A stretch of 64,000 nt of DNA, from the NCBI GenBank assembly GCA_963826535.1, contig CAWGXL010000011.1, positions 64,809-128,808 of the forward strand, in the 5' to 3' direction. Each line of letters begins with the position of its first letter. Position 1 is the first letter of the stretch. Of the stretch, positions 26,582 through 58,086 are shown piece after piece. Source of the stretch: an uncultured bacterium (GTDB taxonomy: Bacteria > Patescibacteriota > Microgenomatia > Levybacterales > UBA12049). The notes beneath the pieces were generated by a model, which was not told where the DNA came from, searched no databases, and was given only the letters and a program-made list of their open reading frames with translations. Position numbers and translations under genes: made by a program.

Positions 26582-26629
26582 ATAGTACTTTAACAGTCTG
26601 TTTGTCCTGATTAAATCGGGTTTGGATAT

Positions 26630-26938: not shown

Positions 26939-27018
26939 TGCCCAAACAATCATTAATGCAATTCATGATTTTGATGATGTAGAGCCTAATTAGGGAGTGC
27001 GGAGAGCATATATTTTAC

Positions 27019-27046
27019 GCAAGATAGCCTAAGGCTATCTTTTTTT
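27019..27046 (+). terminator. Intrinsic-terminator-like hairpin plus T8 between rpsJ and rplC
   Basis: Sequence agatagcc-taa-ggctatct is followed by tttttttt, ending 7 nt before the rplC start. It could act as an attenuator. Confidence 0.45.
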
Positions 27047-27052
27047 TGTCTT

Positions 27053-27925
27053 ATGATTCAAACACTATTTGGAGAGAAAATTGAGCAAACACAAATGTTT
27101 TTGGTTGACGGAACACGTATTCCTGTTACGGTAATCGCTGTGCCGGACAATACTATTGTACAAGTAAAGACTCAGGAGAAAGATAAATATACCGCTGTTC
27201 AAATTGGCGTAGGCAAAAAGAAAAAACCAAGTAAGCCTGCGCTCGGACATGCAAAAAAAGCCGGCTTGGATTTTGCGCCTTATGTAATTAAGGAAATAAA
27301 AATTAATCAAGAAGATTCCTCAGCTCAGATCAAAGCGGATTCAGCTGATCCCGATTTAATCGGGACAGATGGGGAAAGTTCATCAAAAGTGGGGGGGTAT
27401 TTAAAAATTGAAGAAGTTTTCAAACCCGGCGATATTGTTGATGTAACAGGAACATCCAAAGGCAAAGGTTTTGCAGGAGTGGTAAAAAGACATGGTTTTA
27501 AAGGCGGGCCTAAAACACACGGGCAGTCAGACCGAGAGCGCGCACCAGGTTCAATCGGCCAAACAACCACACCGGGAAGAGTTTATAGAGGAAAGCGTAT
27601 GGCCGGTCGTATGGGTCACGAAGTAGTGACTGTTAAAAATCTGAAAGTTGTCAGCGTTGACGAAGTCAATAAAAAACTGTATGTTGCCGGGCTTATACCC
27701 GGCGTAAAAAATTCTATCGTCTTTATCACCCGCAAAGGAGAAAGCAAAAAAATCGTTCCATTATATAAAGAGGAACCAAAAGAGGTGCCTAAAGAAAAAG
27801 AAGCCCTTAATCCAGTTCCCGATAGTGCCGAAACAACAGAGCCAAAAGCGGTCGAGGTAAAATCTGAGGAAAAGAAAAAAAACAAAGTAATAAAAGCAGA
27901 TAAGAAGGAGGGAGAGGAAAAATAG
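27053..27925 (+). CDS. rplC: 50S ribosomal protein L3 with internal insertion and K/E-rich C-terminal extension
   Basis: GTSKGKGFAGVVKRHGFKGGPKTHGQS L3 core. Extra segment ADSADPDLIGTDGESSSK and roughly 70-aa lysine/glutamate-rich tail. Confidence 0.9.
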   Translation: MIQTLFGEKIEQTQMFLVDGTRIPVTVIAVPDNTIVQVKTQEKDKYTAVQIGVGKKKKPSKPALGHAKKAGLDFAPYVIKEIKINQEDSSAQIKADSADPDLIGTDGESSSKVGGYLKIEEVFKPGDIVDVTGTSKGKGFAGVVKRHGFKGGPKTHGQSDRERAPGSIGQTTTPGRVYRGKRMAGRMGHEVVTVKNLKVVSVDEVNKKLYVAGLIPGVKNSIVFITRKGESKKIVPLYKEEPKEVPKEKEALNPVPDSAETTEPKAVEVKSEEKKKNKVIKADKKEGEEK

Positions 27926-27985
27926 CTATTAGCTGTCGGCTATCAGCTGTCTGATAGCTATAAGCTGAATGCTTTAAGCTAAATT
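27924..27985 (+). repeat. Structured intergenic repeat in the r-protein cluster, copy 1 (before rplD)
   Basis: Contains agctattagctgtcggctatcag-ctgt-ctgatagc, a hairpin with stem GCTATCAG/CTGATAGC. Confidence 0.5.
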
Positions 27986-28777
27986 ATGGTTAGAATAAAA
28001 AAAACAGAAGAAAAAGTAAAAAAAAGCGTAACTGTGTCAGGCAAAACAAGGGTAACTAAACCTAAAAAGGCAACTATTGTTGCAAAATCAGTAGAAGGGA
28101 TAAAAAAATCAAATAAGCTGATGGCAGAAGTCTTTGATTTGGATGGCAAAATAGTAGAAAAAATTTCGCTTCCGGAGGAAATTTTCGGAGTCAAAATAAA
28201 TAAGGTGTTAATCGCACAGGCAGTAAGAGTTTATCGCGCTAATCAAAGGCAGGGTAACGCCTCAACCAAGACTCGCGGTGAAGTCCAGGGGTCAACACGG
28301 AAAATTTACCGCCAAAAAGGAACCGGCAGGGCTAGGCATGGATCAATACGCGCTCCAATTTTTGTGCATGGCGGAATTGTCGGCGGTCCCAAGCCCCGCG
28401 ATTACAGTTTGCATCTACCACAAAAAATGAAAAGGGCAGCGCTATTCTCTGCTCTGACTGATAAATTCGGCAAAGGAGAAATTAAGTTTCTGCAAGGATT
28501 TGAGAAGATCGAACCGAAAACTAAAAAGTTTATAAATGCTATGGACAAATTAGGTTTAAACGGAAAGAGGAAGAAAATTCTTATTATCACAGGTGCAGAA
28601 ATTGAAAATCTAAAAAGAGGTGCAAGGAACGTTGAAGGAGTAAGCATAACTGCAGCTATTAGATTAAATACATATGATATACTCAGCCATTGGCAAGTAC
28701 TATTTATGAAAGATGCGATAGTGGAATTAAAAAATCGTTTCTTAGATAAAGCGAAAATAGAGAGTAAAAAAATATGA
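27986..28777 (+). CDS. rplD: 50S ribosomal protein L4 with N-terminal K-rich extension
   Basis: [44 protein letters not shown]4 signature. Confidence 0.9.
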
Positions 28778-29109
28778 ACAATCAGCAAGTTATTATTAGT
28801 CCAATTATTACTGAAAAGGCAATGAAGGCAACTGAAGGTGGAAAATATAGCTTCATAGTTGCAATTAAAGCTTCAAAATCAGATATAAAATTAGCTGTAG
28901 CAAGTATGTTTAAAGTAAGCGTTATAAATGTACAAACCAGCATCGTCAAAGGCAGGCAAAAAAGAAATGGCAGCCGGAGGATTGAAACTACTGAGCCGCA
29001 ATGGAAAAAAGCGATTGTTAAACTAAAAAAGGGAGAAAAAATAGGTATCTTTGAACCAGGAGGCGGGGACGAAGAAAAAGAGAAGAAAGACAAGAAAAAG
29101 AAGAAATAA
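28774..29109 (+). CDS. rplW: 50S ribosomal protein L23 with K/E-rich C-terminal tail
   Basis: IISPIITEKAMK...KYSFIV L23 pattern. 4-nt overlap with rplD. Confidence 0.85.
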   Translation: MNNQQVIISPIITEKAMKATEGGKYSFIVAIKASKSDIKLAVASMFKVSVINVQTSIVKGRQKRNGSRRIETTEPQWKKAIVKLKKGEKIGIFEPGGGDEEKEKKDKKKKK

Positions 29110-29137
29110 CGAGTTTTTAAAAAAATGATATAATGCT

Positions 29138-29887
29138 ATGAAACTAAAAATAATTCGAAAAAAACATGGAGGTCGTGATGCGCAAGGTAAAGTAGCAGTA
29201 AGGCATCAAGGAGGAGAGCACAAGCGATTTATCCGCAATATAGATTTTAAGCGTAACAAATTCAATATTGTCGGCAGGATTGAATCGATAGAATATGATC
29301 CAAATCGAACTTGCGACATAGCTCTTGTGCATTATGTTGACGGTGATAAGCGATATATTCTCGCGCCAGAGGGATTAAAGATAAATGATTCTATTCTTGC
29401 CGGGAAAGAAGTTGAGCCGAAAATCGGCAATGCCCTTCCTCTAGCCCAAATGCCTATTGGAACAATTGTTCATAATATTGAACTAACACCGGGAAGAGGC
29501 GGACAAATGGCCCGAAGCGCAGGTACGGCTGCGTCAGTCACGGCCCGGGAGAATGGGTTTGCCCATATCAAACTACCTTCAGGGGAATTACGAAGAATCA
29601 GAGAGGAAGCTCTTGCAACAGTCGGCCAATTAGGCAACGTTGAATGGAAAAACGAAAGTCTTGGTAAAGCCGGACGTTCCAGGAATATGGGTATTCGCCC
29701 GACAGTAAGAGGTGTCGCGCAAAATCCCCGCTCGCATCCGCATGGAGGAGGAGAAGGTCGTAGCGGAATCGGTATGCCCTCTCCTAAAACCTTTGCAGGA
29801 AGAAAAGCAGTAGGCAAAACACGCAAAAGGAATAAGCATTCGAATAAATATATTTTACAAAGAAGAAACAGCAAAAGAGATAAATAA
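29138..29887 (+). CDS. rplB: 50S ribosomal protein L2 (appears to lack the canonical N-terminal about 35 residues)
   Basis: VRHQGGEHKRFIRNIDFKRNK...YDPNRTCDIALV and GRSGIGMPSPKT L2 motifs. An in-frame stop 12 nt upstream precludes a longer N-terminus. Confidence 0.85.
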   Translation: MKLKIIRKKHGGRDAQGKVAVRHQGGEHKRFIRNIDFKRNKFNIVGRIESIEYDPNRTCDIALVHYVDGDKRYILAPEGLKINDSILAGKEVEPKIGNALPLAQMPIGTIVHNIELTPGRGGQMARSAGTAASVTARENGFAHIKLPSGELRRIREEALATVGQLGNVEWKNESLGKAGRSRNMGIRPTVRGVAQNPRSHPHGGGEGRSGIGMPSPKTFAGRKAVGKTRKRNKHSNKYILQRRNSKRDK

Positions 29888-29893
29888 TAAAAT

Positions 29894-30178
29894 ATGTCAA
29901 GAAGCAGTAAAAAAGGACCATACATTGACCCAAGAATATTAAAAAAAGTCCTGAAGCAAAAAGAAACGGGCAATAACGATCCAATTAAAACCTGGTCACG
30001 ACCATGTCAAATTCCACCAGAATTTGTAGGTCATACGTTCCACGTGCATAACGGGAAGAATTTTATTAAAGTCTTTGTACTTGAAAACATGGTAGGTTAT
30101 AGGCTTGGAGAATTTGCGCCTACCCGGATATTCAGAGGTCACGGAAAAGTAGTAGCAAGAGAAATTAGTAAAACTTAA
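29894..30178 (+). CDS. rpsS: 30S ribosomal protein S19
   Basis: [15 protein letters not shown]...[17 protein letters not shown]. Confidence 0.9.
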
Positions 30179-30191
30179 TAAAAAATATTAT

Positions 30192-30644
30192 ATGGAAATC
30201 AGAGCAGTTGCCAAATCAGTCAGAATGAGCCCAAGAAAAATCCGACTAGTCGCGGATATGGTTAGGAATCTCTCAATTGATAATGCCTTACTCGCGTTGC
30301 AGGCAACGCCAAAAAGAGCCGCACTACCGCTTGCAAAAACGCTCAAAAGCGCGGTTGCAAATGCAGTAAACAATGCCGGACTCGATAAAAATGGCCTGAT
30401 AATTGAAAGCATAAATATCACGGAAGGCAGCAGTCTTAAACGCTTCTGGCCATCCACAAGAGGAAGAATTCATCCGTATAAAAAGAGAAGTAGTAACATT
30501 AGAATTGTCTTAAAAGCAAAAGAAATAAAAGCAACGCCAAAAAAGAAAGAGGAGAAAAAAGGTAAAGAAGCTAAAAATCCGCCAGCTGGCCCCGATTTAA
30601 TCGGGACGGGCGGAGAAAAAGTGAGTAAGAAAGGGAAAAAATAA
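30192..30644 (+). CDS. rplV: 50S ribosomal protein L22 with about 45-aa K-rich C-terminal extension
   Basis: AVAKSVRMSPRKIRLVADMVRN L22 start. Extension contains PAGPDLIGTGGEK. Confidence 0.85.
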   Translation: MEIRAVAKSVRMSPRKIRLVADMVRNLSIDNALLALQATPKRAALPLAKTLKSAVANAVNNAGLDKNGLIIESINITEGSSLKRFWPSTRGRIHPYKKRSSNIRIVLKAKEIKATPKKKEEKKGKEAKNPPAGPDLIGTGGEKVSKKGKK

Positions 30645-31294
30645 TGGGGCAGAAAGTTAATCCACATATTATAAGAATAGGAACTGTTTACAACTGGGAC
30701 AGTCGCTGGTTTGATGAAAAGCGATATAAAGAAACTGTGTTAGAAGATTACCAGATTCGGAAAAATTTAATGGAGAGACTAAAGATCGCCGGAATAGCCA
30801 AAACAGAAATTGAGCGGTCAATCAATAGTTTACGAATAATAGTTTATGTTTCACGCCCGGGTATTGTAATTGGGCGAGCCGGTACGGGTCTTGAAGATCT
30901 GAAAAAATTTATTACACAACTATTCCGGAAAATTCGAAATGGCAAAAATCTGCCTAAGCTTGATATCCGGGTAGAGCCGGTTAAGGAGCCAAACCTTGAT
31001 GCATATTTAGTAGCAACTAATGTTGCGGATCAGCTCTTGAGACGTCTTCCTTTCAAAAGAATACTGGCAACCACAGCAGATAAAGTAATGACCGCCCGCG
31101 CAAAAGGGGTAAAAATCGTACTTTCCGGTCGTATAGGAGGATCAGAAATAGGCAGACGCGAAAAAATTCATATTGGTACAGTACCACTTTCAACAATCCG
31201 GGAAGATATCAGTTACGCCCAGGTTCCTGCGTTAACCAAAAAGGGCTATATTGGGGTAAAAGTATGGATAAATAGAGCACAAGAGAAAAAATAG
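30644..31294 (+). CDS. rpsC: 30S ribosomal protein S3
   Basis: MGQKVNPHIIRIGTVYNWDSRWF KH-domain start. Confidence 0.9.
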   Translation: MGQKVNPHIIRIGTVYNWDSRWFDEKRYKETVLEDYQIRKNLMERLKIAGIAKTEIERSINSLRIIVYVSRPGIVIGRAGTGLEDLKKFITQLFRKIRNGKNLPKLDIRVEPVKEPNLDAYLVATNVADQLLRRLPFKRILATTADKVMTARAKGVKIVLSGRIGGSEIGRREKIHIGTVPLSTIREDISYAQVPALTKKGYIGVKVWINRAQEKK

Positions 31295-31360
31295 CTGTCA
31301 GCTATTAGCTATCAGCTTTTAGATGTATGATAGCAGAAAACTGAAAGCGAAAAGCTAACT
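31292..31360 (+). repeat. Structured intergenic repeat in the r-protein cluster, copy 2 (before rplP)
   Basis: Sequence tagctgtcagctattagctatcagcttttagatgtatgatagcagaaa is near-identical to copy 3. Confidence 0.55.
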
Positions 31361-31361
31361 T

Positions 31362-31769
31362 ATGTTAGAGCCAAGAAAACAAAAATATAGAAAGCAGATG
31401 CGAGATAACATGAAGGGGCGGGCAACCCGCGGGTTAAGTTTGGCATTCGGCGAATTTGGTTTATCCACCCAAGATATGGGATGGATCTCAAGTAAACAAA
31501 TTGAGGCTGCTCGCCGTGCTATAGCGCACTATACACAAAGAGGAGGAAGAATCTGGATTAGAATTTTTCCTGATAAGCCAATCAGTAAAAAGCCGCCGGA
31601 GGTAAGAATGGGTGGCGGAAAAGGAGACTTACACGAATTTGTCGCACCGGTCAAACCCGGAAGAATGCTTTTTGAAATGAGCGGAGTGACACTGGAGATT
31701 GCGAAAGAGGCATTAAGATTGGCCTCTCATAAATTACCGGTTAAAACAAAATTTGTAGTAAAAGAATAA
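31362..31769 (+). CDS. rplP: 50S ribosomal protein L16
   Basis: [25 protein letters not shown]16 start. Confidence 0.9.
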
Positions 31770-31821
31770 CATACAACTGGAGTCCTGACTAAGTCGGGAT
31801 GATAAGGAAAATAAAAATAAT

Positions 31822-32031
31822 ATGAAAGCGAAAGATAAAAAAGAATTACACGGAAGAACGGAAAACGAATTATTAAAAATGGTTAAAGACGGGGAAGAGA
31901 TCTTATTGACGTACAGACTCGACAAAGTGCAGAATAAATTGAAAAATACGCGCGATTTGTTTAATACACGCAAAAAAATTGCTATTTTGCGCACAATTTT
32001 AAGAGAAAAGGAGTTGATCAAAAATGTCTAA
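31822..32031 (+). CDS. rpmC: 50S ribosomal protein L29
   Basis: 69-aa helical protein at the conserved position between rplP and rpsQ. Confidence 0.7.
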   Translation: MKAKDKKELHGRTENELLKMVKDGEEILLTYRLDKVQNKLKNTRDLFNTRKKIAILRTILREKELIKNV

Positions 32032-32341
32032 AATATTGCAAGGAAAAGTTATATCTAATAAAATGAAAGGGACTGCGGTTGTCGAAGTATCCCGAATTTT
32101 TCCTCATCCGTTGTATAAAAAACTTCTAAAAAGAAGCAAAAAATATAAAGTTGATACCAAGGGCGAGAAACTGGAAGTTGGCAAAATAGTGAAAATAATC
32201 GAAACCAGGCCAATTGCCAAAGACAAACACTTTGCGATTTATACAAACGCAAAGAAACCTGTTGTGTCAGCAACAAAAGAAAAAACAACTAAGAGTTTGT
32301 TTGAAAAGCCAAAAAAGTTGTTATCTCGACCGAAGCGATAG
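32024..32341 (+). CDS. rpsQ: 30S ribosomal protein S17
   Basis: KVISNKMKGTAVVEV...KYKVD...ETRPI S17 pattern. Confidence 0.85.
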   Translation: MSKILQGKVISNKMKGTAVVEVSRIFPHPLYKKLLKRSKKYKVDTKGEKLEVGKIVKIIETRPIAKDKHFAIYTNAKKPVVSATKEKTTKSLFEKPKKLLSRPKR

Positions 32342-32453
32342 CGTAGTGGAGAGATCTCACCCCACAAAGTTGCTAGGTGGTATGAGATTCACCCAAAGGG
32401 TACTATCCACTTTGTGGTGTCGCCTAGACTCCTGTTGGTCGCTCGGAATGACA
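32342..32453. repeat. MITE-like palindromic element, copy 1 (truncated left end), family with GTCATT...AATGAC termini
   Basis: Region 32342-32453 is a near reverse-complement match to 46229-46341 (shared cgtagtggagRgatctca and ggtcgctcgRaatgaca blocks). It starts at the rpsQ stop codon. Confidence 0.55.
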
Positions 32454-32493
32454 AATTTTAAACAGACTCTAAGATAAAAAAGGAGAAAAAAGT

Positions 32494-32868
32494 ATGATAC
32501 AAATGCGAACGATTCTTACCGCAGCAGATAATAGCGGGGCAAAACAACTAACAGTTATCCATGTTTTCGGTGGCTCGAAGAGAAGATTTGGACACATTGG
32601 AGACATTGTTAATGTTGTGGTTAAAACAGCCATGCCGCATGGCCAGGTAAAAGATGGTGAGATATGCAAGGCTGTTGTAGTCCGAACCAGAAAAGAATAT
32701 CGCCGGTCTGACGGATCATACATTAGATTTTCAAATAATGCGGCAGTAATTATCGATAATGCCAAAGACAAAAATCCTAAAGGCACGCGTATTTTTGGTC
32801 CGATTGCCCGTGAAGTCCGTGAAGCTGGGTTTGCCAAAATTGCCAGTATGGCAACGGAGGTAGTGTAG
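32494..32868 (+). CDS. rplN: 50S ribosomal protein L14
   Basis: [17 protein letters not shown]...[11 protein letters not shown]14 signature. Confidence 0.9.
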
Positions 32869-32914
32869 ATGAGGGTAAAAGGTAAAGGGTTAAGGGTAAA
32901 GAAAAATAAACAGT

Positions 32915-33232
32915 ATGAAACTCAAAAAAGGTGACGAAGTAAAAATAACAATTGGAAAAGATGCCGGTAAAACCGGAAAGATCGAAAAAGTATTTACCAA
33001 AGAACAAAAAGTGCTTGTCTCAGGTGCGAACCAGTATAAAAGGCATGTGAAGGCGCGCGTTCCGGGCAAAAAGTCGGAAATTATAACAATTACTAAACCT
33101 TTACCCGTAGGCAATGTTGCGCTCATTTGTCAAAAATGCAAGCAACTAACCAGAGTTGGATACAAATTTATTAAAGATGATAAAATAAGAATTTGTAGAA
33201 AATGTAACGAGGAAATAAGTGAGAAAAAGTGA
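32915..33232 (+). CDS. rplX: 50S ribosomal protein L24 (KOW) with C-terminal CxxC...CxxC zinc-ribbon-like tail
   Basis: KKGDEVKITIGKDAGKTGKI KOW motif. C-terminal CQKC...CRKC. Confidence 0.8.
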   Translation: MKLKKGDEVKITIGKDAGKTGKIEKVFTKEQKVLVSGANQYKRHVKARVPGKKSEIITITKPLPVGNVALICQKCKQLTRVGYKFIKDDKIRICRKCNEEISEKK

Positions 33233-33816
33233 CATATATGGAAAGCAAAACTTTACAAGAACAATTTAAAACAACGATAGCCAAGAAATTGCAGGAGAAG
33301 CTGAAAATGAAAAACTTACTGGCTCTACCGCATATGACTAAAATAGTTGTCAATATCGGAGTAAAAGATGCTGTCGTAGACAAGAAAAATATTGAACGGA
33401 TGGAAAAGGCACTATCCTTAATTACAGGCCAAAAACCAAAAATCACTAAAGCCAAAAAGGCTATTGCTACTTTTAAGCTACGCCAAGGCGATCCGATCGG
33501 TCTGGTCGTTACAATTCGCGGTAAAAGAATGTATGCATTTTTTGAAAAAATTGTTAAAATTGTACTTCCCCGCATGAGAGATTTTCGCGGCATCAATAGA
33601 AAAAGTTTTGACGGACATGGAAATTATACTCTTGGGCTGCATGAATATTCGGTTTTTCCGGAGATTGATCCGGCTAGCGTAGATAGGTTACAAGGACTGG
33701 AAATTATATTTGTTACAACCGCGCCAGACAATAATACAGGCATTATATTACTTGAAGCAATGGGGATGCCATTCGCAAAAGAACTCGCACAGCGAAAAGC
33801 TGGAGATATGGTATAA
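33229..33816 (+). CDS. rplE: 50S ribosomal protein L5
   Basis: Conserved position. NRKSFDGHGNYTLGLHEYSVFPEI L5 motif. Confidence 0.85.
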   Translation: MTYMESKTLQEQFKTTIAKKLQEKLKMKNLLALPHMTKIVVNIGVKDAVVDKKNIERMEKALSLITGQKPKITKAKKAIATFKLRQGDPIGLVVTIRGKRMYAFFEKIVKIVLPRMRDFRGINRKSFDGHGNYTLGLHEYSVFPEIDPASVDRLQGLEIIFVTTAPDNNTGIILLEAMGMPFAKELAQRKAGDMV

Positions 33817-33983
33817 TTCCAAAGCTGATAAAAATATGACATTAAATTCGAATATCGAAGCACGAAATTCGAAACAAATTCAAATGTTCAAAATACAAAT
33901 GACAAAAACGTTTTGAATTTGAAAATTAGAATTTTGAAAATTGTTTAGGATTTCGATATTCGGATTTCGGATTTATTTAGGAT

Positions 33984-34169
33984 ATGGCTAAATTATCAAA
34001 CATTGTAAAATTTAAAAGAAAACAAAAATTTGCGGTCCGCATGATGAGCCGCTGTGGTATTTGCGGGAGAAACCGTGCGTATATGCGTAGGTTCGGTTTA
34101 TGCAGAATTTGTTTTCGCGAAAGAGCAATGAAGGGCGAATTGCCCGGAGTACTTAAAGCAAGTTGGTAA
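33984..34169 (+). CDS. rpsZ: 30S ribosomal protein S14 type Z (zinc-binding)
   Basis: 61 aa with [23 protein letters not shown] zinc-ribbon S14 signature. Confidence 0.9.
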
Positions 34170-34215
34170 GCCCGGTTAAACTCCGATTAAATTGGAGAAT
34201 TCGGGATAAAAATAT

Positions 34216-34608
34216 ATGATGAATTATACGACAGGAGATTTTATTATACAGTTGAAAAATGCATCCCGAGCTAGAATTAGAGAGGTATATATGCCCTTTT
34301 CCAATACCAAAAAAGCTATCGGGAAAGTATTAATAAAAGAAAGATTTCTAGAAGAAGTTAAAGAGGAAGAAATTGAAGGGAAAAAAGTATTATATGTAAA
34401 ACTTCGATATCAGGCAAGGCGCCCAGTATTAACTGACGTTGCTATAGTTTCCAAGCCATCTCTGCGGGTATATGTTGGCGCAAATGAAATAGTTAAGTAT
34501 CAAAGAGGGGCACAAACAGCCATCCTATCAACTAATAACGGTATAATGACCGGAAAGGAGGCCTTAAAAAAAGGGGTCGGTGGCGAACTCCTCTTTAAGA
34601 TTTGGTAG
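34216..34608 (+). CDS. rpsH: 30S ribosomal protein S8
   Basis: TGDFIIQLKNA...ILSTNNGIMTGKEA S8 pattern. Confidence 0.85.
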   Translation: MMNYTTGDFIIQLKNASRARIREVYMPFSNTKKAIGKVLIKERFLEEVKEEEIEGKKVLYVKLRYQARRPVLTDVAIVSKPSLRVYVGANEIVKYQRGAQTAILSTNNGIMTGKEALKKGVGGELLFKIW

Positions 34609-34612
34609 TAAT

Positions 34613-35164
34613 ATGTCAAAAATAGGAAAAGCGTCAATTGAAATAAAAAGCGGTATAACAACATCAATACAAGGAAGTATCGTAAAAATAGCAGGCCCAA
34701 AAGGGCAATTTGAATATCATGTTCCAGTTGGATTTGAAATTGTTATAAATGAGGGGAAAATACAGGTATTGCCAAAAGGGAAAACGGATAAAAATAGCAG
34801 CGCGATGTATGGATTAGTAAGAGCAAGTATTGCTAATATGGTAAAAGGCGTAGAAAAAGAATTCGAAAAAAAACTTGAACTATCCGGAGTTGGCTACAAA
34901 GCGCAAATGCAGGGACAAGATTTGATGCTCTCGCTTGGCTTCGCGCGTCCTGTGAATTACAAATCCAAGCCCGGTATAAAAATTGCAGTTGTTGATAACG
35001 TTGTTGTTATTACGGGAATAGATAAGTCGCTGGTTGGTGAGGCTGCGGCAAAAATCCGCGCAATCAAACCGCCTGAGCCATATAAAGGAAAAGGGATTAA
35101 ATATAAAGGCGAAAAAATAAGAAGAAAAGCTGGAAAAGCTGCCAAAGCAGTCGGAACTAAATGA
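34613..35164 (+). CDS. rplF: 50S ribosomal protein L6 (start placed at the ATG after the rpsH stop; the longer ORF from 34580 overlaps rpsH)
   Basis: MSKIGKASIEI...two-domain L6 pattern. Confidence 0.8.
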   Translation: MSKIGKASIEIKSGITTSIQGSIVKIAGPKGQFEYHVPVGFEIVINEGKIQVLPKGKTDKNSSAMYGLVRASIANMVKGVEKEFEKKLELSGVGYKAQMQGQDLMLSLGFARPVNYKSKPGIKIAVVDNVVVITGIDKSLVGEAAAKIRAIKPPEPYKGKGIKYKGEKIRRKAGKAAKAVGTK

Positions 35165-35243
35165 GACGAAGACGCAAGACTTAAGATGTAAGGCTTAAGG
35201 TTTGCGAACATATATCGTATATCGTAAGTCTAAAGTCATAAAT

Positions 35244-35573
35244 ATGAGCAGAATAAAAAGAGAAAAAAGAATAAGAAAGAAGATTGAACATGTCTCGAAT
35301 AGGCCAAGGTTGAGCGTTTTCAGGTCCAACAAATATGTGTATGCGCAAATCGTCGACAAATTTGGCAAAACTCTTTTGGGTCTGACGGAAAAAAGCTTAG
35401 AAAAAAAAGGGGCAACCAGAATTGAAAACGCAAAAGAATTAGGGAAAGCTATTGCGAAAATCGCGCTTGATAAAAAAATTAAAGAAGTCGTCTTTGACAA
35501 GGGTAGATTTGCATATCACGGAAAAGTCAAGGCCGTGGCTGAAGGAGCAAGAGAAGGAGGATTACAGTTTTAA
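35244..35573 (+). CDS. rplR: 50S ribosomal protein L18
   Basis: RKKIEHVSNRPRLSVFRSNKYVYAQIVD L18 signature. Start chosen at MSRIKREK. Confidence 0.85.
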   Translation: MSRIKREKRIRKKIEHVSNRPRLSVFRSNKYVYAQIVDKFGKTLLGLTEKSLEKKGATRIENAKELGKAIAKIALDKKIKEVVFDKGRFAYHGKVKAVAEGAREGGLQF

Positions 35574-35579
35574 AAGACT

Positions 35580-36068
35580 ATGAATTATAACAGACGAGAC
35601 CAAGCGCAATCAGAATACGAAGAACAAATTGTGGAAATCAACCGGGTCTCCAAAAAAACCAAGGGGGGTAATAAAATCGGCTTTTCCGCTTTAGCTGTTG
35701 TCGGAGACAAGAAAGGCAAAGTAGGCGTGGGACTCGGAAAAGCGCCTGATGTCTCGGCCGCGATTAAAAAAGGGATCAGCCGGGCAAAAAAGCACTTAAT
35801 TGAAGTACCGCTAACCCGCGGAACAATTCCTTTTAGAATAGATATCAAACTCGGTGCAGCTAAGATTATGCTCAAGCCGGCGCCTCCCGGGAGTGGTATT
35901 ATTGCAGGAGGCGCAGTGAGAAGCGTTGTTGCAGCAGCGGGAATTCAAAATATCTCAACTAAAGTTCTTGGTACAACCAATCCCGCCAGCAATGTAGCGG
36001 CGACTATAGAAGCCCTGAAGAGATTAAGTGACCTGGCTCAACGGGATATAGCGCGAAGAAAGTTATGA
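35580..36068 (+). CDS. rpsE: 30S ribosomal protein S5
   Basis: VSKKTKGGNKIGFSALAVVGDKKGKVGVGLGKA S5 motif. Confidence 0.9.
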   Translation: MNYNRRDQAQSEYEEQIVEINRVSKKTKGGNKIGFSALAVVGDKKGKVGVGLGKAPDVSAAIKKGISRAKKHLIEVPLTRGTIPFRIDIKLGAAKIMLKPAPPGSGIIAGGAVRSVVAAAGIQNISTKVLGTTNPASNVAATIEALKRLSDLAQRDIARRKL

Positions 36069-36514
36069 ATTTAACTGATCTAACCAAAATAACAGCTAAA
36101 AGTAAAAAAAGAGTCGGCCGTGGGCATGGTAGTGGCCGAGGTAAAACATCCGGCAGAGGCACAAAGGGTCAACTTGCAAGGAATAATCCGAAGCTTGATT
36201 TTGACGGCGACGGAACTCCTTTAATTAGAAAACTTCCCTTCCTGCGTGGAAAAGGAAGAAATAATTCATTACAACAAAAACCATTAATTATCAATATCGA
36301 CAGCCTCAATATATTTTCTGAAGGAGCAGTTGTAGACATCGAAGCTCTTGTCAAGCACAGGTTGGTTCGTCTCAATGAAGCAAAAGAATATGGAGTAAAA
36401 ATTTTAGGAGACGGGGAAATCCAAAAATCTTTAACTATAAAACTACCCATCTCCAAAAACGCTGCCAAAAAAATTGAAGTAGCAGGAGGCAAAATCGAAT
36501 TGTTACATGAATAA
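36065..36514 (+). CDS. rplO: 50S ribosomal protein L15 (no L30 gene between rpsE and rplO)
   Basis: [23 protein letters not shown]15 motif. 4-nt overlap with rpsE. Confidence 0.9.
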
Positions 36515-37799
36515 ATTTCTCGATATCCTGAAAAACAGCTTTAAATCGCCGGAAATTCGTAAAAAGATCTTATTTACTCTTTTCATCCTTTTCATAGTCA
36601 GAATTTTCGCGCATATCCCAGTTGCCGGTGTAAATCTGGAAGCCCTCAAAAATTTATTTGACAGCAATCAATTTCTCAGTTTGCTTAATATTTTTTCAGG
36701 AGGCACACTGGCAAATTTTTCAATTATAGGTCTTGGGCTCAATCCATATATTAACGCTTCGATTATAATTCAATTACTAACCATGGTTTTCCCAAAGCTC
36801 GAAGAACTCTCGAAAGAAGGAGACTCGGGAAGAAGAAAGATTAATCAATATACTAGATTTTTGACAATTCCCTTAGCTGTGCTCCAGGGCATCGGCATGT
36901 ATGCACTCCTTAATAGCCAAGGAATTATAGGCGCTCTTAGTCCGGTGGCGTTTATCTCATTTGTAGCAATCATGACTTCCGGTACAGTTTTTCTAGTCTG
37001 GCTGGGTGAACTAATTACTGAACGCGGAATTGGCAACGGAATTTCGCTCTTAATTGCGGCGGGTATCTTAGGCGGGATTCCGGTTATAATCGGACAAACA
37101 CTTACAACTGCTACAGCTGAAACCGCAGCGAACACTTTGATACTTATCGCATTATCCCTAGTCGTTATCGCAGGTATTATAGTTGTCAATGAAGCAACGC
37201 GACAAATTACTGTCTTTTACGCCAAACGTGTACGGGGAAACAAAACGTATGGCGGACAGACCACGCATTTGCCCCTTCGCCTCAATCAGGCAGGCGTTAT
37301 TCCGATCATTTTCGCGGTTTCAATAGTTCTACTACCGGCCTTGCTGGCGAATTTCCTGCGTACTTCAAATAATCAAATTCTACGCAGCATATCAGAGAAT
37401 GTTAATATCTGGTTTGATCCAAGCGGCGTTATATACAATGTTTTTTACTTCCTGCTTGTTGTTGGTTTTACTTATTTCTACACGGCAATTATTTTCAACC
37501 CAAAAAAAATTGCCGAAGAAATCCAAAAGTATGGCGGCTTTATTCCGGGAATCAGGCCAGGGAAGCCTACCTCCGTATACCTTAATTACATTCTAGTCAG
37601 AATTACACTGGTTGGTGCAAGCTTTTTGGGAATTATTGCCATCATGCCATCCTTTGCCGGTACAGCAACCGGTATTCAGACATTATTCCTCGGAGGCACA
37701 GGAGTTCTTATCGTGGTAAGTGTCATCCTTGAGACTTTCAAATCCATTGAAGCCAGTTTAGTCATGAGAAACTATGAATCATTTTTACAAACTAAATAA
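36507..37799 (+). CDS. secY: Preprotein translocase subunit SecY
   Basis: 430 aa with 10 TMs. Conserved operon position after rplO. Confidence 0.9.
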
Positions 37800-37863
37800 C
37801 ATTTAAAAGACCTCACCCTACCCTCTCCTATGAGGAGAGGGAAAATGAGGATGGAATAATTAT

Positions 37864-38421
37864 ATGAAGTTAATTTTACTGGGTATACAGGGAGCGGGCA
37901 AATCAACACAAGGAAACCTGCTCAAGAAAAAATTCAACATTCATTACCTTTCAACGGGTCACATCTTCCGTGATCTAGCCAAAGAGCATACTATTATTGG
38001 AAGAAGAATAAAAGAAACCATGAACGCGGGCTATCTTATACCTGACAAGCAAACTTTGAAAATAGTCTCCGAGTATTTAAGCCGCCCTGAATATCAAAAA
38101 GGCTATATTATGGATGGATTCCCTAGAACTGTCAAACAAGCCGAGAGTTTCGAAAACGGTATTGATAAGGTAATTTATCTTAAGGTTTCAGATCCTGAAG
38201 CACTATGGCGGCTCTCCTTCCGTAACCATGATGACGGTAGGCAAGACGAAACGCTTGCTGCAATTCGCAAACGGATTATGTTATATCATAAATATACTGA
38301 CCCGGTGCTGGATTTCTACAGAAAGCATAGGAAGCTTGTAGAAATTGACGGGGAACAAAAGATAATAGATATTCACAGGGAAATCCTCGACAAACTAGGA
38401 ATAAAAAACCATAAAAAATAA
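37864..38421 (+). CDS. adk: Adenylate kinase (short form without zinc lid)
   Basis: GIQGAGKSTQ P-loop, YIMDGFPRTVKQAE NMP-binding motif. Confidence 0.85.
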   Translation: MKLILLGIQGAGKSTQGNLLKKKFNIHYLSTGHIFRDLAKEHTIIGRRIKETMNAGYLIPDKQTLKIVSEYLSRPEYQKGYIMDGFPRTVKQAESFENGIDKVIYLKVSDPEALWRLSFRNHDDGRQDETLAAIRKRIMLYHKYTDPVLDFYRKHRKLVEIDGEQKIIDIHREILDKLGIKNHKK

Positions 38422-38428
38422 ATCCTCT

Positions 38429-38983
38429 ATGAAATATATTATTGCGCTTGTCGGAATGCCAGGATCCGGAAAAAGCGAAGCGGCGGCTTACCTGCAAAAG
38501 AAAGATATACCATTTATAAGGTTCGGAGACTTAACAGATGCAACTATTAAGGAGATGGGCCTGCCGCTTACTCCCGAAAACGAACAGATTGCAAGAGAAA
38601 AATTAAGAAAAGAATTTGGCATGGATATATATGCCATAAAAGCAAATCCTAAAATACAACCTTTATTAGAAATCCATCCGGTTATAGGGTTAGATGGGTT
38701 ATATTCCTGGGAGGAATATGTTTATTTAATTAAGCGTTTTCCACAACTGATAATTCTACATATTTTTGCGCAACCTAAGATACGATATGAACGCCTGTCA
38801 AAAAGAACTATCAGACCGCTTACCCTCGACCAAGCCCGAGCAAGAGATATTGCTGAAATTAATAAATTACACAAAGCCGGGCCAATTGCAATTGCCGATT
38901 ATATGATTGAAAATAATAGCGAGGACCTTAATATATTATACGGTAAGCTTGATAACCTACTCGCCCGTTTAGAAATAAAATAA
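38429..38983 (+). CDS. UPF0200/AAA_17-like P-loop nucleotide kinase
   Basis: IALVGMPGSGKSEAAAYL P-loop. Overall similarity in layout to archaeal-type adenylate/dephospho-CoA kinase-like UPF0200 proteins. Confidence 0.45.
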   Translation: MKYIIALVGMPGSGKSEAAAYLQKKDIPFIRFGDLTDATIKEMGLPLTPENEQIAREKLRKEFGMDIYAIKANPKIQPLLEIHPVIGLDGLYSWEEYVYLIKRFPQLIILHIFAQPKIRYERLSKRTIRPLTLDQARARDIAEINKLHKAGPIAIADYMIENNSEDLNILYGKLDNLLARLEIK

Positions 38984-39005
38984 CTTTAAGATATGCAAAA
39001 TAATT

Positions 39006-39116
39006 TGTCATTCCCCTGGACAGGGGAATCCAGAAGATATAAATAACTCTTCCTTATAAAGGTTAAATAGAAAAACTTATTTTTACCTACTGGATTCCCG
39101 CGTTCGCGGGAATGAC
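39006..39116. repeat. MITE-like palindromic element with termini tgtcattccc / gggaatgac and internal hairpins
   Basis: Terminal inverted repeats at 39006-39015 and 39108-39116. Internal hairpins attcccctg-gac-aggggaat and attcccgcg-ttc-gcgggaat. Intergenic between the kinase gene and map. Confidence 0.55.
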
Positions 39117-39135
39117 GTTGGTCTGCTTTAGACGA

Positions 39136-39930
39136 GTAAATCTTATGATTCATATTAAGTCAGCGGAGGAAATTAAAATAATGATAGCCGGAGGACGTAT
39201 CTTAAGTGATGTTCTTTTTGAGGTTTTGGATGCAGTACGTCCTGGCATCAAGGAAATAGAAATAGACCGGCTGGCTGAAAAATTGATCCGCGAAAAAGGT
39301 GGAGAACCGGGCTTTATGCGCGTCAAGGGTTACCGTCATACGACCTGCATGTCCACCAATGATATTATCGTTCATGGTATTCCGGGTAATTATATATTTA
39401 AAGAAGGTGATGTGGTGGGAATTGACTGTGGCGTCTACTATCAGGGTTTCCATTCGGATATGTCTGAAAGTATAAGTATCAAAAACGGTAAACCTCATTA
39501 TTATACAGGCCGAGAAACAGGTGGTACGGAGATTGATAAATTTCTAACAATTGGTAAAAAAGCATTAAACGAAGCGATCAAGGTCGCCATCCCCGGAAAT
39601 CGCGTAGGGGCAATCTCAAAGACTATCCAAGATATTGTTGAAATAAAAGCAGGATACTCAATCGTAAGAAGTTTAATTGGCCATGGAGTAGGACGAGAAT
39701 TACACGAAGAACCTGAAGTACCCGGCTACCTATTAGGGGATATCAAACATACTCCACCTCTTCAAGAAGGGATGACGATCGCTGTCGAAATTATTTATAA
39801 TATGGGCACACCGGAAGTTGTAATTGACAAAGATGGCTGGACAATTCGTACCAAAGATGGCAAATTGGCAGGTCTCTTTGAAAGATCTATCGCGATAACT
39901 AAAAATAGCCCGCTAATTTTGACAAAATAA
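39136..39930 (+). CDS. map: Methionine aminopeptidase type I
   Basis: MIHIKSAEEIKIM...metal ligands in GIDCG, HGVGRELHEEP and EI(I)YN blocks. Confidence 0.85.
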   Translation, partial: VNLMIHIKSAEEIKIMIAGGRILSDVLFEVLDAVRPGIKEIEIDRLAEKLIREKGGEPGFMRVKGYRHTTCMSTNDIIVHGIPGNYIFKEGDVVGIDCGVYYQGFHSDMSESISIKNGKPHYYTGRETGGTEIDKFLTIGKKALNEAIKVAIPGNRVGAISKTIQDIVEIKAGYSIVRSLIGHGVGRELHEEPEVPGYLLGDIKHTPPLQEGMTIAVEIIYNMGTPEVVIDKDGWTIRTKDGKLAGLFERSIAITKNSPLILTK

Positions 39931-39985
39931 ACTACATCTAAATATTTCGGTTGCCCTATGGAGCGTAGTTTGATATAATGTTTGG

Positions 39986-40207
39986 ATGGCTCACCAAGGC
40001 TCATTCGAAAAAGATGGGGTTGTAAAGGAGGCTTTGCCAAATACATTATTTCGGGTTGAGCTTGAAGATGGGACAATTGTTCTTTGTCATCTATCAGGCA
40101 AAATGAGAATGAATTTTATAAAAATTTTACCGGGAGACAAGGTGCGGATTGAAATGACACCATACGACCCGAATAGAGGCAGGATAATACTGCGCTACAA
40201 TAGGTAG
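39986..40207 (+). CDS. infA: Translation initiation factor IF-1
   Basis: S1-like [31 protein letters not shown]...RIILRY. Confidence 0.85.
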
Positions 40208-40222
40208 ATAGGAAATAAACTT

Positions 40223-40396
40223 ATGAAAGTACAAGCAAGTGTAAAAAAAAGGTGCATGAAATGTAAGATAATCAGACGCAAAGGGGTTGTACGCGTCACG
40301 TGTGAGAATCCCAGACACAAACAGAGACAAGGGTGAAGAAAGTTTAAAGTGCAAAGTGCAAAATTCAAAGTTACATAAGGAAATTTTTTATAATTA
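40223..40396 (+). CDS. rpmJ: 50S ribosomal protein L36 with atypical extended C-terminus (possible 1-nt indel)
   Basis: [32 protein letters not shown] matches L36. The canonical ...HKQRQG* ending is replaced by ...[26 protein letters not shown]. An extra A in cacaacag would restore HKQRQG-stop. Confidence 0.6.
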
Positions 40397-40442
40397 ATCC
40401 CTTAACTTTAAACTTTGCGATTTGAGAATTTAGTTTTTATTT

Positions 40443-40856
40443 ATGAGAATTGCAGGAGTTAATATACCGGACGAAAAAAGAATTGAAATTTCGCTAGCTT
40501 ACATTTACGGTATTGGACGAAGTAATGCCAAGGGCGTGTTAGAAAAGTCCAAAATTGATGGCGGAAAACCCACAAAGACATTGACAGAAGAAGAAATAAA
40601 ACGGCTCACAGGGGTGTTGGACAAATATAAAATCGAGGGAGATTTGAGAACTGAAATAGCAGGTAATATTCGCAGATTAAAAGAAACTGGTGCATACCGC
40701 GGAATAAGGCATACGCGTAATCTTCCTTCCCGCGGCCAAAGGACACGTTCCAATGCGCGTACCAAAAGAGGCAAGAGAGTGACTATTGGCGCAATCAAGA
40801 AAGAGATAATGGCAAAGACCACGGCAGCACAAGGCGCAAAGCAGCCGGGAAAGTAA
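40443..40856 (+). CDS. rpsM: 30S ribosomal protein S13
   Basis: MRIAGVNIPDEKRIEISLAYIYGIG S13 start. Confidence 0.9.
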   Translation: MRIAGVNIPDEKRIEISLAYIYGIGRSNAKGVLEKSKIDGGKPTKTLTEEEIKRLTGVLDKYKIEGDLRTEIAGNIRRLKETGAYRGIRHTRNLPSRGQRTRSNARTKRGKRVTIGAIKKEIMAKTTAAQGAKQPGK

Positions 40857-40859
40857 CAT

Positions 40860-41273
40860 ATGGCAGAAAAAGAGACAAAGAAAACTACTAAAACCAGGCA
40901 CAAGCCGAAAGCAGTGAAGAACCGTTACACACAGCATGGAAGAATCTATATTACTTCAACTTTTAATAATACCTTAATCACTGTCACAAATGACAAAGGC
41001 GATACACTAGGCTGGAGTTCATCAGGTCATCGTGGTTTTAAAGGCACTCGTAAATCAACACCCTATGCAGCGTCCCTGAGTGTTGAAGATGTTACCAAAA
41101 GACTCATTGAAAAAGGACTTAAGACTGTGGATGTCTATGTCAAAGGCCCGGGTAGTGGTCGGGATTCATCACTTCGGGCAATTAAAACATCAGGATTATC
41201 AATTGTATCTATTGCGGACATTACGCCAATACCACACAATGGACCAAGGGCGAAAAAGAAGAGTAGAGTGTAA
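40860..41273 (+). CDS. rpsK: 30S ribosomal protein S11
   Basis: GRIYITSTFNNTLITVTNDKGDTLGWSSSG S11 motif. Confidence 0.9.
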   Translation: MAEKETKKTTKTRHKPKAVKNRYTQHGRIYITSTFNNTLITVTNDKGDTLGWSSSGHRGFKGTRKSTPYAASLSVEDVTKRLIEKGLKTVDVYVKGPGSGRDSSLRAIKTSGLSIVSIADITPIPHNGPRAKKKSRV

Positions 41274-41278
41274 AAATG

Positions 41279-41346
41279 TAGCTGTCAGCTATTGGCTATC
41301 AGCTTTTAGATGTCTGATAGCAGAAAGCTTACAACAGAGAGCTAAA
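41279..41346 (+). repeat. Structured intergenic repeat in the r-protein cluster, copy 3 (before rpsD)
   Basis: Sequence tagctgtcagctattggctatcagcttttagatgtctgatagcagaaa has the same palindrome tagctg-t-cagcta and hairpin gctatcag...ctgatagc. Confidence 0.55.
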
Positions 41347-41348
41347 TT

Positions 41349-41951
41349 ATGGCAAGATATAGAGGACCAAAACATAAACTAGCAAGGCGCGCCGGAGTAA
41401 ATTTGTTAGAAAAGACATCGGCAAGCTTGATGCGCAGGCTCAATACGCCACCGGGTCTGCATGGCAAAAAAAGGAAAAGGAGACTTTCCGAATTCGGACA
41501 ACAATTAAAGGAAAAACAGAAAGCAAAGTCCGTGTATGGATTGCTAGAAAAGCAATTTAAGAAATTGCTCCAACACGTATCCAAACAAAAAGGAGATACA
41601 GAGGAACTACTCTTATCGCTTCTTGAACGAAGACTTGATAATATTGTGTATAGACTTGGTTTTGCCAAATCCAGATTTATGGCCCGCCAGTTAGTAACTC
41701 ATGGGCACATCATACTAAATAACAAAAAAATGACGATCCCCTCTTATGAATTGAAAGCAGGTGATGTAGTGTCGCTAGGTGCCAAAATGCAAAAAAATGC
41801 GCTGGTTATTAAAACAATAGATGAAATGAAAGATACGATCGCGTTTCTTGAAAGACAAGGGGGAGCGGGTAAATTAGTCAGGATGCCAACACCTGACGAT
41901 ATTAAGCCTCCTTTTAATACAAGACAAATTATTGAATATTATTCCAGATAA
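41349..41951 (+). CDS. rpsD: 30S ribosomal protein S4
   Basis: MARYRGPKHKLARR start and S4-domain RLDNIVYRLGFAKSR. Confidence 0.9.
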   Translation: MARYRGPKHKLARRAGVNLLEKTSASLMRRLNTPPGLHGKKRKRRLSEFGQQLKEKQKAKSVYGLLEKQFKKLLQHVSKQKGDTEELLLSLLERRLDNIVYRLGFAKSRFMARQLVTHGHIILNNKKMTIPSYELKAGDVVSLGAKMQKNALVIKTIDEMKDTIAFLERQGGAGKLVRMPTPDDIKPPFNTRQIIEYYSR

Positions 41952-57769: not shown

Positions 57770-58086
57770 AATAAATCCTCTTATCCGACCCTATATCTTA
57801 TCCAAATGTACGCTTGGAACGAGCACGCAAAGGCGCCAATTCGGATATAGGGTCTTTGTAAGGTAATTATAGATTATCTATGTAAATATATCAATATATA
57901 TCAAGAATACTAAATTAATCAAAGTGGCTCAAAATTCTATGTCTCAATATTATAATCCGGATCGCAAATTAAATCCCTCCCAACTTCCCTTTAGAAAAGG
58001 CAGAGGAAGGATTGCAAGTTCCTTAAGCCTTGATTGTTTTCTGAATCGGTAGAAGCTATAATAAATTTGATTGATTATAAGTCTGA

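Follow-up and report, generated by a model that had tools for sequence, protein, structure and literature searches.

The spacers between co-transcribed genes of Enterobacteria harbor repetitive extragenic palindromic (REP) sequences and bacterial interspersed mosaic elements (BIMEs), short imperfect palindromes that are present in many copies, are transcribed as stem-loops, turn over fast and influence mRNA stability or translation in a generic way. REPs carry a conserved GTAG foot, are mobilized by RAYT transposases and are not built of tandem heptamers. In E. coli, the ribosomal proteins (r-proteins) L4 and S4 are autoregulators, which act at the S10 leader and the alpha-operon leader, respectively. 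Here, we analyze a structured element that recurs three times in the r-protein superoperon of an uncultured patescibacterium of the order Levybacterales (Microgenomatia; GenBank assembly GCA_963826535.1, contig CAWGXL010000011.1, positions 64,809 to 128,808), in a 64-kb stretch that we refer to as the window and to which the count and the genomic distribution of the element apply. On balance, we favor the view that one short dispersed repeat, peculiar to this genome, is present here in three copies, and that it represents a hairpin form of the known class of intergenic heptamer repeats (STRR, TAACTGA, GGGAATC).

Heptameric simple sequence repeats (SSRs) are over-represented in bacteria, in some cases as inverted pairs, and vary between close relatives (Rehm 2015, PMC4692102); polymerase slippage has been proposed as their origin (PMC4692102). 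Among the examples named there are the cyanobacterial STRR and the GGGAATC/GGGGAYT repeats of Xanthomonas and Nostoc (PMC4692102, citing Mrazek 2007). A further heptamer, TAACTGA, forms direct repeats in marine Beggiatoaceae, Cyanobacteria and Bacteroidetes (MacGregor 2015, PMC4679880). These repeats mostly lie just upstream of start codons that lack a ribosome-binding site, are over-represented before translation genes and also occur within r-protein operons, including positions before the genes for L3 and S4; their function is unknown (PMC4679880). The BOGUAY genome contains 169 direct TAACTGA sets and a single indirect one, and no arrays of the one-base variant TAGCTGA (PMC4679880).

The three elements of the window, with their units, core stems and flanking genes, are as follows:

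27923..27985, plus strand: copy 1, rplC|rplD spacer, 63 nt = 9 heptamers; units TAGCTAT TAGCTGT CGGCTAT CAGCTGT / CTGATAG CTATAAG CTGAATG CTTTAAG CTAAATT
27939-27946 / 27951-27958, plus strand: core stem of copy 1
27053-27925 and 27986-28777, plus strand: rplC (L3) and rplD (L4), flanking copy 1 (Pfam)
31292..31361, plus strand: copy 2, rpsC|rplP spacer, 70 nt = 10 heptamers; units TAGCTGT CAGCTAT TAGCTAT CAGCTTT TAGATGT / ATGATAG CAGAAAA CTGAAAG CGAAAAG CTAACTT
31308-31314 / 31328-31334, plus strand: core stem of copy 2
30644-31294 and 31362-31769, plus strand: rpsC (S3) and rplP (L16), flanking copy 2 (Pfam)
41279..41348, plus strand: copy 3, rpsK|rpsD spacer, 70 nt = 10 heptamers; units TAGCTGT CAGCTAT TGGCTAT CAGCTTT TAGATGT / CTGATAG CAGAAAG CTTACAA CAGAGAG CTAAATT
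41295-41302 / 41314-41321, plus strand: core stem of copy 3
40860-41273 and 41349-41951, plus strand: rpsK (S11) and rpsD (S4), flanking copy 3 (Pfam)

Sequence matches and the Pfam assignments of the neighboring genes (L3/L4, S3/L16 and S11/S4 for copies 1, 2 and 3) bear out the initial annotation in its central observation, a repeated element after rplC, rpsC and rpsK and before rplD, rplP and rpsD, which is thus located in non-coding DNA and occupies the whole gap from stop to start at all three junctions. The 48-mer given there for all three sites matches exactly at 31292-31339 and 41279-41326, with none expected by chance; the remaining site, 27923-27985, is a diverged copy that is shorter by one 7-nt unit and only 66% identical to the reference copy in an ungapped comparison (identities within this repeat family, D9, are 66%, 100% and 85%). 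A spaced pattern, AGCTNNNAGCTNNNRGCT, is found six times, against 0.02 matches expected, and is confined to these three sites within the 64 kb. Likewise, when the window is searched, with all filters disabled, by a covariance model of the three copies, copies 2 and 3 score 97-98 bits and copy 1 scores 77 bits; no fourth copy is revealed, and the next score on the plus strand is 13.7 bits.

What the initial annotation lacks is the heptameric build: the copies are exact multiples of seven nucleotides (63, 70 and 70 nt, i.e. 9, 10 and 10 units with zero remainder), each spanning from a TAG to the last base before an ATG. The units are degenerate and of the type TCAGCTA/TAGCTGA. In the 5' half, four to five of them read YAGCTNT, whereas the 3' half is a degenerate, purine-rich complement of CTGAWAG-like units (CTGATAG CAGAAAG CTGAAAG ... 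CTAAATT). Tandem Repeats Finder (TRF) detects the period of 7 (x 4.4) at 31292-31322 and a period of 14 at 27925-27951, and in a MAFFT alignment of the elements alone, copy 1 lacks exactly one unit relative to the other two. The TAG of the first unit doubles as the stop codon of rplC in copy 1 and of rpsC in copy 2, while in copy 3 the rpsK stop codon is a TAA at 41271-41273, which ends 5 nt 5' of the first unit. At their 3' end, all three read AGCTAA(A/C)TT and directly abut the ATG of rplD (27986), rplP (31362) or rpsD (41349), so that the array ends at position -1. Stop codons are found in all three frames of copies 1 and 2 and in two frames of copy 3. Finally, copies 2 and 3 are identical at 46 of 48 nt, degenerate units included, which indicates that one was copied from the other rather than that the two grew independently.

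The self-complementarity of AGCU allows each copy to fold back on itself as an imperfect rod made of its two halves, with predicted folding energies of -18 to -24 kcal/mol and z-scores of -1.9 to -3.4. All three predicted folds place the 3' AGCUA (positions -9 to -5 relative to the AUG) opposite a UAGCU unit of the 5' half. The structural details proposed initially apply to part of the set: copies 2 and 3 contain the palindrome TAGCTGTCAGCTA, and the hairpin stem GCTATCAG/CTGATAGC occurs in copies 1 and 3, while copy 2 has a stem of 7 bp (ATGATAGC).

Such hairpins between genes might be parts of an internal promoter, an intrinsic terminator or an attenuator within the superoperon, and an internal promoter was indeed among the roles first suggested. 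Apart from the hairpins themselves, the only feature in line with this is a TATGAT in copy 2, which resembles a -10 hexamer and has no equivalent in copies 1 and 3. In a consensus scan, none of the best 60 of 69 sigma-70-like sites (-35/-10 with a spacing of 16-18 nt) lies on any copy, none of the 16 terminator-like sites in the window overlaps one, and no T-run follows the stem, which leaves the transcribed hairpin with no U-run downstream. We therefore regard this possibility as highly improbable. The UAG/CAG triplets that recur every 7 nt give the copies an NAG-N4 periodicity, which may recall HutP-type anti-terminator sites, where three NAG triplets with a 4-nt spacing go together with a hutP gene and a terminator downstream; no terminator follows the copies. 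Rfam, r-protein leaders included, yielded no match to the copies, whether at its gathering thresholds or with E values as high as 10.

The comparison with relatives covered the r-protein clusters of the seven closest ones available (SecY 81-86% identical) and 80 metagenome loci from the Joint Genome Institute (JGI). By its SecY, the organism belongs to Patescibacteria/Microgenomates; its source contig measures 894 kb, and an identical rpsC is present in the sequencing run ERR12035939. The element is missing at the orthologous junctions of all seven. In most relatives, these junctions are tight:

rplC|rplD: median gap 1 nt; gap of at least 40 nt in 6 of 32 relatives
rpsC|rplP: median gap 1 nt; gap of at least 40 nt in 7 of 45 relatives
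rpsK|rpsD: median gap 5 nt; gap of at least 40 nt in 13 of 43 relatives

Since spacers of 1-5 nt prevail, the three elements are recent insertions or expansions, which this genome acquired in ancestrally tight junctions. The initial annotation had called the element conserved and had named a lack of conservation in relatives as one of the findings that would speak against its proposals; this is what we found. The covariance-model search that it suggested recovers the three copies, while in 1.1 Mb of sequence from relatives the model reaches 35 bits at most, and these weak scores fall on other heptamer families. A scan of the JGI metagenomes for a lineage-specific version with the segment TTTTAGATGT gave no matches. 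The exception among the close relatives is L118, where the rpsC|rplP spacer holds a degenerate (GCTANNN)x4 array that ends in ...AGCTAAATATT-ATG and looks like a remnant; a further array of the same locus, at rplV|rpsC, ends in GAGCTAACTT-ATG. Overall, the data do not support the idea that the elements are a conserved regulator, be it a promoter or an r-protein mimic.

While the sequence is confined to this genome, its build is not. Among 231 distinct spacers of at least 40 nt in the cluster of relatives, 37 have a strong period of 7 (at least 18 of 21 self-matches) and three a strong period of 8; none is strongly periodic at periods 4-6 or 9-12, and shuffled controls give 0.05. Correspondingly, TRF finds 141 arrays of at least three copies at period 7, whereas none of the other periods between 4 and 15 has more than 22, a ratio of at least 6 to 1. 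The units vary by lineage and include TCAAATA, TTCAAAA/CTTTTAA, GTTGAGA/TCTCAAC, CTAGTNA and others. In a 607-kb contig (L160), one heptamer-hairpin family of ~125 nt occupies rpsC|rplP, rpmJ|rpsM and rpsK|rpsD, and another locus (L197) contains four copies of (TAGNNNN)5+(NNNCTAA)5, each of which begins within the stop codon of the preceding gene or just behind it and reaches as far as the ATG. The window itself has hairpins at no fewer than 11 junctions of the superoperon, and four further spacers with arrays of period 7:

32872..32901, plus strand: AGGGTAA x 4.3, rplN|rplX spacer; another unit of the same class
33944..33974, plus strand: TTTCGGA x 4.4, rplE|rpsN spacer; 3' arm of a hairpin at 33817-33983 (z = -3.8)
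35165-35201: NNTTAAG, rplF|rplR spacer
40346..40371, plus strand: AAAGTGC x 3.7, rpmJ|rpsM spacer; 5' arm of a hairpin at 40337-40442

Arrays related to the last of these are present at the same junction in L141, L160, L161 and L198. A second, small hairpin family, GTCCTGAYTAARTCGGG, was noticed in the tuf|rpsJ (26604-26620) and rplP|rpmC (31782-31798) spacers.

In these properties, the copies resemble the heptamer repeats described previously. With the TAACTGA repeats, they share tandem intergenic 7-nt units, a location inside r-protein operons, a patchy distribution across phyla and an end that lies a few nucleotides from the start codon, usually without a Shine-Dalgarno (SD) sequence. The unit is one base off (TAGCTGA, or TCAGCTA on the other strand), and true TCAGTTA/TAACTGA hairpins do exist in Microgenomates relatives, for instance at rpoA|rplQ in L160, where the hairpin reads TCAGTTN/NAACTGA; such hairpins also occur in L135 and L143. 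In contrast to the BOGUAY sets, which are nearly all direct, the array is followed here by its inverted complement to give a hairpin, the units are degenerate, and the whole composite of 63-70 nt has been copied as one dispersed repeat. What they have in common with other heptameric SSRs, such as STRR and GGGAATC, is the dominance of period 7, the intergenic position, the occurrence of some inverted pairs and the variability between relatives; however, the SSRs of Rehm 2015 are G-rich and were studied as possible quadruplexes, whereas the unit here is AGCT-centered and self-complementary. As in STRR/TAACTGA-like repeats generally, a 7-nt unit is present in at least three copies, lies between genes and is rapidly gained, lost or changed in length. 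A literature search by the exact repeat sequence gave no match, nor did we find a description of heptamer repeats in Patescibacteria; the concentration in r-protein spacers and the occurrence in Patescibacteria are likewise not reported in the literature that we found on heptameric SSRs. REPs and BIMEs are also multicopy intercistronic imperfect palindromes, but the copies here are built of heptamers, and only copy 3 contains a GTAG (ATGTAGCT). Within the 64 kb, the three copies all lie in the r-protein cluster and in one orientation.

Hairpins of the same unit extend well beyond Microgenomates. We scanned one genome per GTDB species (596 Gb) with the pattern AGCTNNNRGCTATCAGCTN{2,12}TGATAGC and obtained at least 117 loci, against about 1.5 expected by chance according to our calculation. 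The matches have the form (AGCTATC)n-loop-(GATAGCT)n, with the variants AGCTGTC, AGCTTTC, AGCTCTC and GGCTATC. Eleven phyla or more are represented, and a single genome often holds several copies; the groups include Acidobacteriota, Gemmatimonadota, Cyanobacteria, Armatimonadota, Planctomycetota, Chloroflexota, Bacteroidota, Omnitrophota, Patescibacteria, Bacillota and several proteobacterial groups. Cultured carriers among the matches listed are Geothrix (e.g. G. paludis), Dyadobacter (e.g. sp. Leaf189), Hymenobacter (e.g. sp. ISL-91), Moorena (e.g. M. bouillonii) and Ferrimonas; the cases at r-protein junctions among these matches include none from a cultured strain. Twenty of the hairpin loci were compared with Rfam and had no match. 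Viral contigs gave no match to the general pattern and hence no sign of a phage vector. In about one eighth of the matches listed, the first unit supplies the stop codon of the neighboring gene. Some copies, e.g. L040, L099 and L105, have common loops and flanks. Longimicrobiaceae have an element of 140-160 nt whose inverted ends consist of heptamer arrays and enclose a core without repeats; one contig carries it at rplX|rplE (L079, 6020-6170) and at rpsK|rpsD (L028, 5590-5760). This composite also occurs elsewhere in the genome and resembles a miniature inverted-repeat transposable element with (AGCTATC)n/(GATAGCT)n arrays as terminal repeats, as do L040, L099 and L105.

Although the sequence is not conserved, the class is placed non-randomly and favors r-protein operons. 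In Microgenomates loci of at least 12 kb, to which this comparison is restricted, 74 arrays of period 7 fall into 45.6 kb of spacer inside the cluster and five into 21.0 kb outside it, i.e. 1.62 versus 0.24 per intergenic kb, a 6.8-fold difference. The multi-phylum hairpins point the same way, as the S10-spc-alpha cluster contains or directly adjoins five of the 117 loci listed, where we would expect about 0.6 by our estimate:

L079: rplX|rplE
L028: rpsK|rpsD (Gemmatimonadota)
L009: rpsD|rpoA
L072: rplR|rpsE
L025: after rplQ

An additional TCAGCTA hairpin lies at rpmI|rplT in L010. The positional bias toward r-protein operons implied by the initial annotation thus holds for the heptamer class. 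By itself, the element of this genome is ordinary, a young genome-specific repeat, and recognizing it as such averts a wrong annotation as a leader or an internal promoter. For the long-standing question of what bacterial heptamer repeats do and how they arise, the dominance of period 7, the approximately sevenfold denser arrays in r-protein clusters and the TCAGCTA hairpins at r-protein junctions of distant phyla offer concrete points of attack.

This bias invites the idea of a selected RNA element with a role in translation, in which the 7-nt register (NAG-N4) would be a platform for an RNA-binding factor or the ribosome. Possible readers would be S1, a cold-shock protein (Csp), a HutP-like oligomer or the ribosome itself, and the effect would be SD-independent initiation or re-initiation, or an adjusted stoichiometry of the downstream r-proteins. 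Besides the enrichment of arrays and TCAGCTA hairpins in r-protein clusters, the shared AGCTAA(A/C)TT-ATG, which brings the arrays to an end exactly at the start codon, and the single orientation kept within each family (three times in the window, four times in L197, three times in L160) agree with such a role, as do the over-representation of TAACTGA repeats before translation genes (PMC4679880) and the binding of one heptamer per CspB protein, which the same paper cites. Yet the units differ wholly between lineages, so that no single sequence-specific factor fits, and no binding factor was identified; moreover, the element is absent from close relatives, and many heptamer spacers of relatives precede a normal GGAGG SD sequence. 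The contexts of the multi-phylum matches listed, 57 co-directional, 17 convergent and 17 divergent by a crude classification based on open reading frames (ORFs) with at least one wrong call (L010), are also close to random intergenic placement. We consider a selected role in translation possible, but rather doubtful. A more far-reaching version would make heptamer-array hairpins a pan-bacterial intercistronic class, generated or selected in connection with r-protein and translation operons, whose 7-nt register, with TCAGCTA/TAACTGA as the preferred units, is read by a conserved component such as the ribosome, S1, a Csp or the replication or transcription machinery, and in which the three copies would set r-protein stoichiometry or enable SD-independent re-initiation. 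This seems to us unlikely.

A different role is suggested by the folding of the spacers. When all expanded spacers of the cluster are considered, folding favors the sense strand in 141 cases and the antisense strand in 80 (p = 8e-7), and G-U pairs number 635 in the former versus 449 in the latter. Together with the intercistronic position, the stable predicted hairpins and their presence at so many superoperon junctions of this genome, this would be consistent with an RNase processing site or a segmental mRNA stabilizer that was selected in a similar manner as the intercistronic REP stem-loops of E. coli; the hairpin would define cleavage points or block 3' exonucleases and thereby tune the mRNA levels of individual segments. 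However, the strand bias is mixed for the three copies and vanishes in the subset with period 7. The copies show no covariation, and their short stems, 8 bp plus 4-bp AGCU blocks, would be poor substrates for RNase III. Selection for processing or stabilization is thus quite improbable, even if a generic role as intercistronic RNA is possible.

A dispersed heptamer repeat, as we prefer to read the elements, could have come about in a few steps. The arrays would arise and change in length by replication slippage of 7 nt, the inverted arm was probably added by template switching, and the composite would then have been copied between junctions; such arrays may persist in spacers because they carry stop codons and fold onto themselves. 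On the polycistronic transcript, pairing of the 5' arm (YAGCURU x 4-5) with the CUGAWAG-like 3' arm is predicted to give an imperfect rod, whose base would adjoin the stop codon of the preceding gene and lie 4-5 nt short of the next AUG. The stem-loop may slow mRNA decay in the 3'-to-5' direction. By melting the 5' arm, a ribosome terminating at the UAG would make the start region accessible, and translation of the downstream gene may thereby stay dependent on that ribosome. On this model, the effect of the stem-loop on decay and translation is most likely generic, and we infer that the elements are neither a site for a particular r-protein nor a promoter.

Several points weigh against this account. 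Neutral slippage leaves the preference for 7 nt, the recurrence of the unit across phyla and the bias toward r-protein operons unexplained, and all three copies lie, in the same orientation, in a cluster that makes up 25% of the intergenic DNA of the window (p about 0.015). For the proposed rod, compensatory changes are absent among the three copies, where nothing indicates selection on RNA structure, and spacers with period 7 fold alike in sense and antisense (16 versus 16). In the wider set, the outermost helix encloses 0.75 of the spacer, against 0.62 in shuffled controls, which is barely more; it is thus chiefly these three copies that speak for a bridging of stop and start, and we rejected it as a general rule. 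We also dropped an argument for translational coupling from missing SD sequences: the anti-SD duplex energies at the three copies (+0.4, -2.1 and -2.9 kcal/mol) are normal for this genome, as SDs are weak throughout the called genes of the window (median -1.5 kcal/mol; -4 or lower in 21% of 72 genes).

The positions of copies 1 and 3, directly upstream of the genes for L4 and S4, raise the question of whether the elements are lineage-specific mimics of r-protein sites and mediate internal autoregulation by one of these proteins, as was proposed at the outset. Like the S10/L4 and alpha/S4 leaders of E. coli and the ribosomal leaders in Rfam, they are structured RNAs in an r-protein operon, upstream of regulator genes, and the TCAGCTA hairpin at rpsK|rpsD of a Gemmatimonadota genome (L028) is a second case before rpsD. 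But those leaders are conserved, mimic the rRNA site and lie at the start of the operon, whereas the copies are unconserved repeats between internal cistrons, absent from relatives and without a match to any Rfam leader. Since the element precedes the genes for L4, L16 and S4 alike, and hairpins of this type also precede rplE, rpsE, rpoA and rplT and, across 11 or more phyla, adjoin many unrelated genes without a ribosomal role, a mimic for a single r-protein is implausible, and we consider the proposal hardly tenable.

A better candidate for a leader is the rpsJ|rplC spacer (26939-27052); of the relatives, 18 have both genes, and each of them has a long spacer here (median 156 nt). A conserved motif, ATGCCCAA, lies close to the 5' end of the spacer, and a terminator-like hairpin (27021-27041) with a T-run closes it directly before rplC. 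The stem of this hairpin co-varies between lineages (GATAGCC/GGCTATC, GCGACTG/CAGTCGC, GTGGCC/GGCCAC), and some lineages have a TATAAT-like box within the spacer; Rfam has no match for the spacer. Judging from these sequence features, it is a candidate r-protein leader of the attenuator type, placed before rplC instead of rpsJ, and more likely to be the real autoregulatory site of the operon.

A few other features of the window, which contains no rRNA, deserve mention. A TG-extended promoter-like site, TTGCCC-17-TATAAT, lies in the 39951-39988 region and ends 6 nt before the ATG of infA (39986), so that infA may be leaderless; rplB (29138) is likewise preceded by TGATATAAT. On the minus strand, Rfam identifies a DUF3800-IX RNA at 57783-57854 (39.2 bits; gathering threshold 36.8) and, below threshold, WsnRNA46 at 38990-39136 (37.4 bits, E = 1e-4; gathering threshold 65.3), in the spacer before map, which contains GTCATTCCCCTGGACAGGGGAATCC-type hairpins. 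Six ORFs of ~260-300 aa are paralogous to each other (DNA identity 61-86%), four of them in tandem; the two that were compared with Pfam had no match:

5144-5980, plus strand: paralogous ORF
10975-11883, plus strand: paralogous ORF
46351-47256, minus strand: paralogous ORF
47289-48197, minus strand: paralogous ORF
48346-49128, minus strand: paralogous ORF
49291-50199, minus strand: paralogous ORF

Finally, a ClpB-like AAA+ protein of 1454 aa is encoded at 11912-16276 on the minus strand; its recognized domains end near residue 850 and are followed by a long C-terminal extension. The neighboring ORF (16307-21523, minus strand), which encodes 1738 aa and has no Pfam match, contains internal repeats of 276 nt and ~1.3 kb.

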